In this document: in pieces, positions 4,423 to 4,626 of the stretch
Layout of the letters: each line of letters starts with the position of its first letter
How positions within the stretch are numbered: the stretch's first letter is position 1
Virus record (IMG/VR): IMGVR_UViG_2718218171_000001
Source of the DNA: a virus
Lineage: Duplodnaviria; Heunggongvirae; Uroviricota; Caudoviricetes
DNA: 38,764 bases
Direction: 5' to 3' (one strand)
Notes under the pieces: generated by a model
Seen by the model: only the letters and a program-made list of their open reading frames with translations
Databases searched by the model: none
Told to the model about the DNA's origin: nothing
Made by a program: the position numbers and the translations under genes

Positions 4423-4626
4423 TTAACCTCCAGATTTCCGCGCATCTAAAGGTGCATTCTCATTTGGTGTGAACTGAATAGTTGTGCTGATATTGATTAA
4501 TGCTCCGACACACAAGACTACGCACTCAGAGCAGATAGCAACTTCATCTTTTCCGCCTTTGGCGATGATTTTTTTTGCCTGCAGCTCGTTTGCGCCACAA
4601 AACGAGCATGTGAAATAACGGTTCAT
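4423..4626 (-). CDS. Small protein with ClpX-type N-terminal C4 zinc-binding-domain-like motif (67 aa)
   Basis: MNRYFTCSFCGANELQAKKIIAKGGKDEVAICSECVVLC... compared with the E. coli ClpX ZBD (CSFCGK...KLIAG...YICDECVDLC). Start taken at the second in-frame ATG (4626); the track uses 4644. Confidence 0.55.
   Translation of the reverse strand: MNRYFTCSFCGANELQAKKIIAKGGKDEVAICSECVVLCVGALINISTTIQFTPNENAPLDARKSGG

Follow-up and report, generated by a model that had tools for sequence, protein, structure and literature searches.

The viral DNA analyzed here, IMG/VR record IMGVR_UViG_2718218171_000001 (Duplodnaviria; Heunggongvirae; Uroviricota; Caudoviricetes), spans 38,764 nucleotides (nt) and is referred to below as the window. 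On its minus strand, at positions 4423..4626, lies a small gene whose 67-amino-acid (aa) product is a free-standing zinc-binding domain (ZBD) of the type found at the N-terminus of ClpX. The sequence comparisons indicate that this gene is real and maintained by selection, and the assignment of its product to the ClpX-type domain is solid. The surrounding features support its position as the first gene of the early-left operon, where it would be expressed early under repressor control. The original prediction had described a stand-alone, ClpX ZBD-like mini-protein in this position, a description borne out by the profile match, the predicted fold, the signature of purifying selection and the conserved position presented below. 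Its function is a more tentative matter, for which a decoy acting on ligands of the ClpX N-domain is our best guess.

The coding sequence runs from an ATG at 4626..4624 to a TAA stop codon at 4425..4423, which is included in the coordinates, and encodes MNRYFTCSFCGANELQAKKIIAKGGKDEVAICSECVVLCVGALINISTTIQFTPNENAPLDARKSGG. Both the extent of this open reading frame (ORF) and its four cysteines (C7, C10, C32 and C35) agree with those originally predicted. A second in-frame ATG located 18 nt upstream, at 4644, would add six residues to give a 73-aa form, and it has no Shine-Dalgarno sequence. The shorter form is preceded by the Shine-Dalgarno-like AAGAGAG (4632..4638, minus strand), 5 nt before the ATG at 4626, and relatives carry AGGAG or GAGG at an equivalent distance; the RefSeq PGAP call uses the 67-aa start as well. 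Two parts can be distinguished in the product. The ZBD core (residues 4-45; 4492..4617, minus strand), delimited by the HMMER alignment to 2ds5 and 1ovx, by AlphaFold2 and by Foldseek, consists of a CxxC pair (C7, C10), a β-hairpin, a second CxxC pair (C32, C35) and a C-terminal helix. The remaining residues 46-67 (4426..4491, minus strand) form a C-terminal tail that is predicted to be disordered and is unconserved in the family.

The domain was identified by both profile and structure. The Pfam family zf-C4_ClpX (PF06689) matches with 41.3 bits against a gathering cut-off of 27 (E=1.4e-10), over residues 12-46 of the 73-aa form and profile positions 2-34 of 39, so that the profile match proposed as a check on the original prediction is significant. 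No other significant Pfam match was obtained for the 67-aa protein, and no RNA- or DNA-binding profile matched. A phmmer search of all PDB sequences returned solely ClpX N-domains (2ds5 and 1ovx, E about 3e-4), with an aligned block of the form C-S-F-C-G ... K-x-I-A ... I-C-x-E-C-V-x-L-C. The cysteine spacing is C7-x2-C10-x21-C32-x2-C35, compared with x18 in ClpX, which makes the hairpin loop of the mini-protein three residues longer. To model the fold, an alignment of 17 family members was used for a single-chain, metal-free AlphaFold2 prediction, which gave a mean predicted local distance difference test (pLDDT) score of 70.5; block means are 74-89 in the core (residues 1-50), and the score falls below 50 for residues 52-67. 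In Foldseek, the predicted core superposed on the E. coli ClpX ZBD structures 2ds5-2ds8 with target-normalized template modeling (TM) scores of 0.80-0.84, a root-mean-square deviation of 1.3-1.6 Å, a probability of 1.00 and 38-41% identity, and no other fold came near this predicted structure. Despite the longer x21 loop, the cysteine spacing is compatible with the ZBD fold in this prediction.

The protein is nevertheless not ClpX itself, as its sequence comprises a ZBD without the AAA+ motor: the ClpX equivalog models NF003745 and TIGR00382 reach only 25.8 and 22.7 bits where their cut-offs stand at 359 and 371, and the match covers no more than the first ~45 positions. Compared with the E. 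coli ClpX ZBD (1OVX, 2DS5-2DS8, PF06689), it shares the C4 motif CSFCG...IC-x-EC, the order of β-hairpin and C-terminal helix, 38-47% identity over ~40 residues and the 1.3-1.6 Å agreement of the predicted fold. It differs in being free-standing, with neither linker nor AAA+ module; a variable disordered tail stands in place of the ClpX linker, and the loop is extended by three residues. The positions of the ClpX ligand-binding patch are kept in part. F16 of ClpX corresponds to F9, which is invariant in the family, while Y34 is replaced by an invariant alanine (A30), and I46 probably corresponds to A42, a position inferred from a gapless extension of the HMMER alignment past residue 41 and occupied by a small, variable residue (A/T/V/I/S/M/K). 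The helix of the mini-protein (CVVxCVxxLIN) is also more hydrophobic than that of ClpX and is predicted to be longer.

To assess selection on the gene, its 45-codon core was compared pairwise with those of five relatives, two of them in Salmonella phages (118970_sal3 and F1055), one on a Citrobacter freundii chromosome and two on metagenomic contigs. The proportion of changed nonsynonymous sites (pN) is 0.14-0.20 against a proportion of changed silent sites (pS) of 0.77-0.95, meaning that silent sites are saturated. Across 17 family members, the four cysteines, F9, G11, K23-G24, A30-I31 and V40 are invariant. The family is small, and its hosts are limited to Enterobacteriaceae (E. coli, Salmonella and Citrobacter) and their phages; among complete E. 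coli genomes, 97 of 5,426 carry the gene. The identical coding sequence (100% DNA identity over 204 nt) is present in RefSeq as WP_001083098.1, annotated by PGAP as "ClpX C4-type zinc finger protein", within a CPS-53/KpLE1-like prophage adjoining dsdX, and the protein belongs to PHROG 5259 (E=2e-31), a family without recorded function; both entries represent the mini-protein's own family, from which it does not differ. Since RefSeq already names the identical gene in this way, the domain call is public annotation and not new, and the earlier framing of the protein as unrecognized has to be abandoned. Literature searches on phage or stand-alone ClpX zinc-finger proteins and on ClpX inhibitors returned no paper on such a protein, the sole mention being a metagenome contig discarded for carrying a ClpX zinc-finger domain. 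In PADLOC-DB, no defense-system profile matched the 67-aa protein at E<=0.1, and a defense or anti-defense assignment was rejected on this basis.

Whether the gene might instead be a decaying, non-functional ORF of a cryptic prophage was considered in light of a frameshift hot spot, an A8 homopolymer on the coding strand at 4569..4576 (minus strand) that covers codons A-K-K-I. A 1-nt deletion in this tract (A7 allele) yields a 35-aa product without the second cysteine pair, and it was found in E. coli 51008369SK1 and in at least 13 other genomes among the matches listed. The deletion marks one lineage of the dsdX-linked prophage, whose carriers include an O25b:H4-ST131 strain and dog isolates, among others, and the gene goes without a PGAP annotation in these genomes. 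The A8 run is missing in several family members, and because it occurs in only some lineages, the A7 copies look like ordinary homopolymer decay; programmed slippage at the tract was rejected for the same reason. Together with the absence of the gene from close relatives such as phage SfV, this frameshifted E. coli lineage is what speaks for general decay. Against it stand the strong purifying selection that the core shows in copies from E. coli, Salmonella, Citrobacter and metagenomes, the 46 copies intact at 204 nt among the 60 best E. coli copies (at least 14 are of the A7 kind), the occurrence of the gene in the genomes recorded for phages 118970_sal3 and F1055, and the conserved ribosome-binding sites. 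A non-functional ORF is accordingly the least probable of the explanations weighed, and we give it hardly any credence.

The genomic position of the ZBD gene is defined by a lambdoid immunity region. Upstream on the same strand lies a cI-like repressor gene (4811..5437, minus strand; Pfam HTH_3 and Peptidase_S24, PGAP "LexA family protein"), with a divergent P22-type Cro gene at 5535..5735. A terminator-like hairpin directly follows the repressor gene (4761..4792, minus strand; -15.1 kcal/mol, z=-2.66), and the 3' half of its stem begins a U-rich stretch that continues downstream. A promoter scan placed a sigma-70 promoter resembling the lambda early-left promoter (PL) at 4729..4757 (minus strand), with a -35 element TTGCCA, a 17-nt spacer and a -10 element TAGATT; this site is a consensus match only, yet it overlaps repeats that resemble a left operator (OL). 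These repeats (4727..4783) belong to a direct-repeat family, D1/D2, with copies CTAACTTAACTTAG at 4732-4745 and CAAACTTTTCTTAG at 4768-4781, and their CTAAG-N4-CTTAG type recurs in the divergent cI/cro region at 5460-5473 and 5509-5522. The repressor gene, the hairpin, and the promoter with operators shared with the right operator region confirm, at the level of sequence, that the ZBD gene is the first one downstream of a PL-like promoter, with the addition that a leader of ~95 nt, which contains a conserved structured RNA, intervenes.

The same slot is kept in five other loci, where the ZBD gene is the first same-strand ORF after the repressor gene, 190-420 nt downstream. The repressors of these loci differ in length and domain content, and the operator regions differ in sequence; the repressor is of the S24 type in all of them except 118970_sal3, which has a 133-aa regulator compared with the 208-236-aa S24-type proteins elsewhere. 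In most of the five, the stretch that separates the repressor and ZBD genes contains a hairpin with a T-run and a site resembling a promoter. In a wider set of 129 loci that bear the leader, 17 have the ZBD gene in the first slot after it, and the rest are occupied by dozens of unrelated small-ORF families; phage SfV has the leader and orf33 and no ZBD gene between them. The slot (window 4400..4650; loci L010-L129) thus looks like a hypervariable hot spot for accessory genes, and the ZBD gene is an optional cassette within it. The next gene varies among the loci examined, and a conserved downstream partner was rejected because it differs between them.

As to what the encoded protein does, the reading that we rank first, while holding it tentatively, is that it may act as a decoy for ClpX N-domain ligands. 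A CPS-53/SfV-like temperate phage would produce a ClpX-type ZBD with a short disordered tail and no AAA+ motor, and transcription from PL through the structured leader would deliver it in the first minutes after infection or induction starts, a timing expected because the repressor-controlled PL would drive the gene. As a free copy of the N-terminal docking domain of ClpX, the mini-protein would take up the peptides for which that domain is the usual docking site; the proposed ligands are two adaptors, SspB and RssB, and substrates of the lambda O or MuA type whose degradation depends on the N-domain. Ligands withheld from the host ClpXP in this way would alter its degradation spectrum early in lytic development. 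The further proposition, that a domain mimic made as the very first early-left product reprograms ClpXP by sequestering RssB, SspB or substrates that depend on the N-domain, for instance the replication initiator of the phage itself, is possible but doubtful. The more specific form given in the original prediction, in which titration of ClpX or heterodimerization with it would stabilize phage proteins that are ClpXP substrates, is plausible.

A decoy is preferred because the free E. coli ZBD inhibits adaptor-dependent ClpXP degradation in trans: at 5-20 µM, the isolated domain inhibits the RssB-mediated breakdown of sigma-S by 0.6 µM ClpXP in vitro (PMC7226468). The same domain dimerizes and cross-links to the C-domain of RssB (PMC7226468). 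According to a further study, lambda O degradation depends on the ClpX ZBD, and a hydrophobic patch around F16 and I46 is used in common by SspB, RssB, trigger factor and lambda O (PMC7804408). The retention of F16 as the invariant F9 and the recurrence of stand-alone ZBD-like proteins in unrelated phages speak for a decoy as well. The natural and experimental proteins are alike in being free ZBDs without a motor; they differ in that the competitor of PMC7226468 is a piece of the host protein made in the laboratory, while the mini-protein comes from a natural gene that has diverged and has a promoter context of its own. We infer zinc binding, dimerization and ligand binding by the mini-protein, as well as any effect on ClpXP and the choice of relevant ligand.

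Several observations weigh against a decoy. The ligand patch is only partly kept, given the variable residue A42 in place of I46, the invariant A30 in place of Y34, and the three-residue loop extension. In vitro, the effect required free ZBD to outnumber ClpXP by ~10- to 30-fold, and the position of first gene behind a strong early promoter would be a reasonable route to such an excess. The gene is also dispensable for this type of phage, as illustrated by SfV, by the modest share of leader loci that carry it and by the one frameshifted lineage. Moreover, the ZBD fold is reused widely, as 632 mostly short cluster representatives with 1-4 copies attest, and for that reason homology to the ClpX domain alone does not imply action on ClpX. 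The proposed decoy function is derived from the biology of the family.

These points bear directly on a second explanation, in which the ClpX-type zinc ribbon is a mere scaffold for dimerization or peptide binding, with a ClpX-independent role and a likeness to ClpX that reflects shared fold ancestry. Such a protein could be an accessory regulator of the lysis-lysogeny choice, an inhibitor of a host defense or cell process, or a superinfection-exclusion factor. We consider a ClpX-independent role nearly as likely as the decoy, though itself uncertain, because the ligand patch has diverged, the fold is widely reused and unrelated phages carry such proteins. The breadth of the fold became apparent in an HMMER scan of 1.84 billion representatives, which gave 632 matches at E<=1e-3, mostly proteins 50-300 aa long that contain 1-4 copies in tandem; genuine ClpX reaches just ~1e-5. 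Stand-alone ZBD-like proteins are also encoded by unrelated phages, such as Pseudomonas phage PP9W2 and Bacillus phage G, and three more PHROGs (20296, 12435 and 6797) contain them. The family's own invariant signature (AKG-G/S-K-D-E, A30 and the hydrophobic helix CVVxCVxxLIN) departs from ClpX at positions that line the patch, and a hot spot for unrelated accessory ORFs is a slot in which a separate function would fit. The 38-47% core identity to the E. coli ZBD and the retention of F16, on the other hand, place the mini-protein nearer to ClpX than would be expected of a generic zinc ribbon, and neither PADLOC nor any other significant Pfam match points to a different function.

Among the metagenomic proteins recovered in these searches, P0016, P0024, P0026-P0031 and others contain 2-4 tandem ClpX-type ZBD repeats, and one protein of 2,505 aa has 37 ZBD-matched stretches. 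These architectures point to a large, uncharacterized world of ZBD-repeat proteins outside ClpX.

A third explanation is that the mini-protein docks onto host ClpX itself, by pairing with its N-domain or through its tail, and serves as a blocker or as a phage adaptor that delivers chosen proteins, a candidate cargo being the DNA-binding N-terminal fragment of the self-cleaved neighboring S24 repressor. The ClpX ZBD is a dimerization domain according to cross-linking (PMC7226468), and in S. aureus phages 11 and 80alpha the binding of the CI N-terminal fragment by ClpX is needed to complete induction (PMC10584840). The ZBD gene adjoins an S24-type repressor gene in the window and in all compared loci but 118970_sal3, where the neighboring regulator of 133 aa is far from the 208-236 aa of the S24-type repressors; this adjacency, however, is explained equally well by the position of first PL gene. 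Pairing with ClpX is further disfavored by the high local concentration of ZBD pairs within the ClpX hexamer, which would probably hinder invasion by a free monomer.

Cargo specificity in such a docking model could reside in the tails, whose length and sequence vary across the 26 family members compared and which are often swapped at a recombination joint just past the helix. A motif [ILVM]-x-[ILVM]-x-F-x2-5-[AS]-P, in simplified form h-x-h-x-F-xx-[AS]-P, occurs in 5 of the 26 tails, compared with 0.03 expected by shuffling. Its carriers are P0009, P0010, P0013, P0021 and P0167 (for example IDISFPDAP, ITVKFGDAP and LSVKFDYAP), whose tails are otherwise unrelated. The tail of the window protein is predicted to be disordered and lacks this recurrent motif, for which reason little weight is placed on it; a conserved functional tail was rejected on the same grounds. 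Taken as a whole, docking onto ClpX is unlikely, although it retains more appeal than the decay discussed above.

The leader between the PL-like promoter and the ZBD gene contains a conserved structured RNA of 64 nt (4652..4715, minus strand; covariance-model match 4640..4719, 94.7 bits). Its outer helix pairs 4710-4715 with 4652-4657, and a nested inner helix pairs 4679-4683 with 4662-4666; together they enclose an invariant 23-nt core, GGCAGGACGCCCACGAAGUAGCC. About 60 nt of the leader are near-identical between loci whose ZBD silent sites are saturated. Among 93 distinct copies, taken from phages and from viral contigs, pairing holds in 94.7% of cells compared with 68.5% after shuffling, compensatory changes occur at 10 of 11 pairs, and sliding the partner columns lowers pairing to at most 46%. 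The inner helix, for example, occurs as CCGGU/ACCGG, CCUGG/CCAGG, CCCGA/UCGGG, CCGAC/GUCGG and CCACC/GGUGG. Copies of the RNA occur in 53 phage records, among them SfV, SfII, SfIV, ST64B, ZF40, mEp237 and mEp460 as well as phages of Yersinia, Providencia, Klebsiella, Pectobacterium and Aeromonas, and most of these records carry no annotation at the site; it also occurs in more than 120 viral contigs. In the loci examined (the window, SfV, 118970_sal3, F1055, L007 and L009), it lies just 3' of the early-left promoter.

Rfam returned no match for the leader RNA at E<=1, and the covariance model built from the 93 copies found none in two searched regions of HK022 (within positions 22000-36000) or in the whole of HK639. 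The put-like antiterminator RNA annotated as putL-like at the equivalent position of HK639 is unrelated to it in sequence. The leader was accordingly rejected as a member of an Rfam family, and it is not a recognizable put RNA, since neither the searched HK022 regions nor HK639 yielded a match. It could be a new cis-acting RNA of the early-left operon that acts on transcription of the operon.

A gene directly past such a leader holds the slot of lambda N, and the region around the hairpin of the mini-protein is rich in lysine, which together speak for an N analogue: a zinc ribbon that binds nucleic acid and, with the leader RNA, makes early-left transcription resistant to terminators. This role is very unlikely, because gene and leader occur independently of each other. 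As noted, most leader loci, SfV among them, lack the gene, and conversely the Citrobacter locus L006 has the gene without the leader. The protein has no arginine-rich motif and matches no RNA- or DNA-binding profile, and the assignment as an N-like antiterminator was rejected.

Phages are known to inhibit host AAA+ proteases with small proteins: lambda cIII acts on FtsH, and T4 PinA and T7 Gp4.5 act on Lon, with cIII encoded in the PL operon. If the mini-protein is a decoy, it would resemble these inhibitors in being a small early phage protein whose proposed outcome is the stabilization of selected proteins through protease interference; it is unrelated to them in sequence, and none of them mimics a domain of its target. 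Literature searches turned up no ClpX-directed phage inhibitor. A closer analogy to cIII, with the mini-protein guarding the Phage_CP76 CII-type protein encoded in the window, was dropped. Phage 186 has a CII of the Pfam family to which the window's CII-like protein also belongs, and this CII is degraded by FtsH and RseP and not by ClpXP (PMC7708051), which leaves that analogy unsupported.

The possible interest of the mini-protein lies in the range of steps that ClpXP governs in temperate phages and their hosts, which include lambda O, Mu proteins and sigma-S (through RssB), and further the cleavage fragments of LexA and CI and the antitoxins of abortive-infection systems. If the decoy reading holds, the gene would be a natural, genetically encoded switch-off of N-domain-dependent ClpXP proteolysis, and this would account for a recurrent unannotated phage gene family. 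A mimic of this kind would rank as the first natural phage effector aimed at ClpX and as an instance of protease control by domain mimicry, which, given the stand-alone ZBD proteins of unrelated phages, could be a general strategy. If the role is independent of ClpX, the ClpX zinc ribbon would have been recruited for another role in a lambdoid prophage immunity region.

The gene following the ZBD gene in the window (4139..4414, minus strand) encodes a 91-aa homologue of SfV orf33 (PHROG 3195). It begins 8 bases past the ZBD stop codon, and its GGAGG ribosome-binding site lies in the last ZBD codons. It converges with an ORF at 3976..4221 (plus strand), the two overlapping by 83 nt; the plus-strand ORF matches PHROG 3311 (E=2.5e-53) and the minus-strand gene PHROG 3195 (E=6.9e-63), and RefSeq annotates one or the other depending on the genome. 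In loci L007 (4245..4469) and L009 (4224..4448), a different convergent ORF, of 74 aa, runs into the ZBD gene and overlaps its final 38 nt. In the immunity region of the window, DUF4222, winged-helix replication and PerC-like proteins are encoded in addition to the CII-type protein, with the gene of the phage replication protein at 6675..7616. Between 958 and 2301, 719 N characters are scattered singly or in short runs and leave the ORFs there (e.g., 1227..3110) unreadable, a stretch that looks like masking or poor consensus and not biology.

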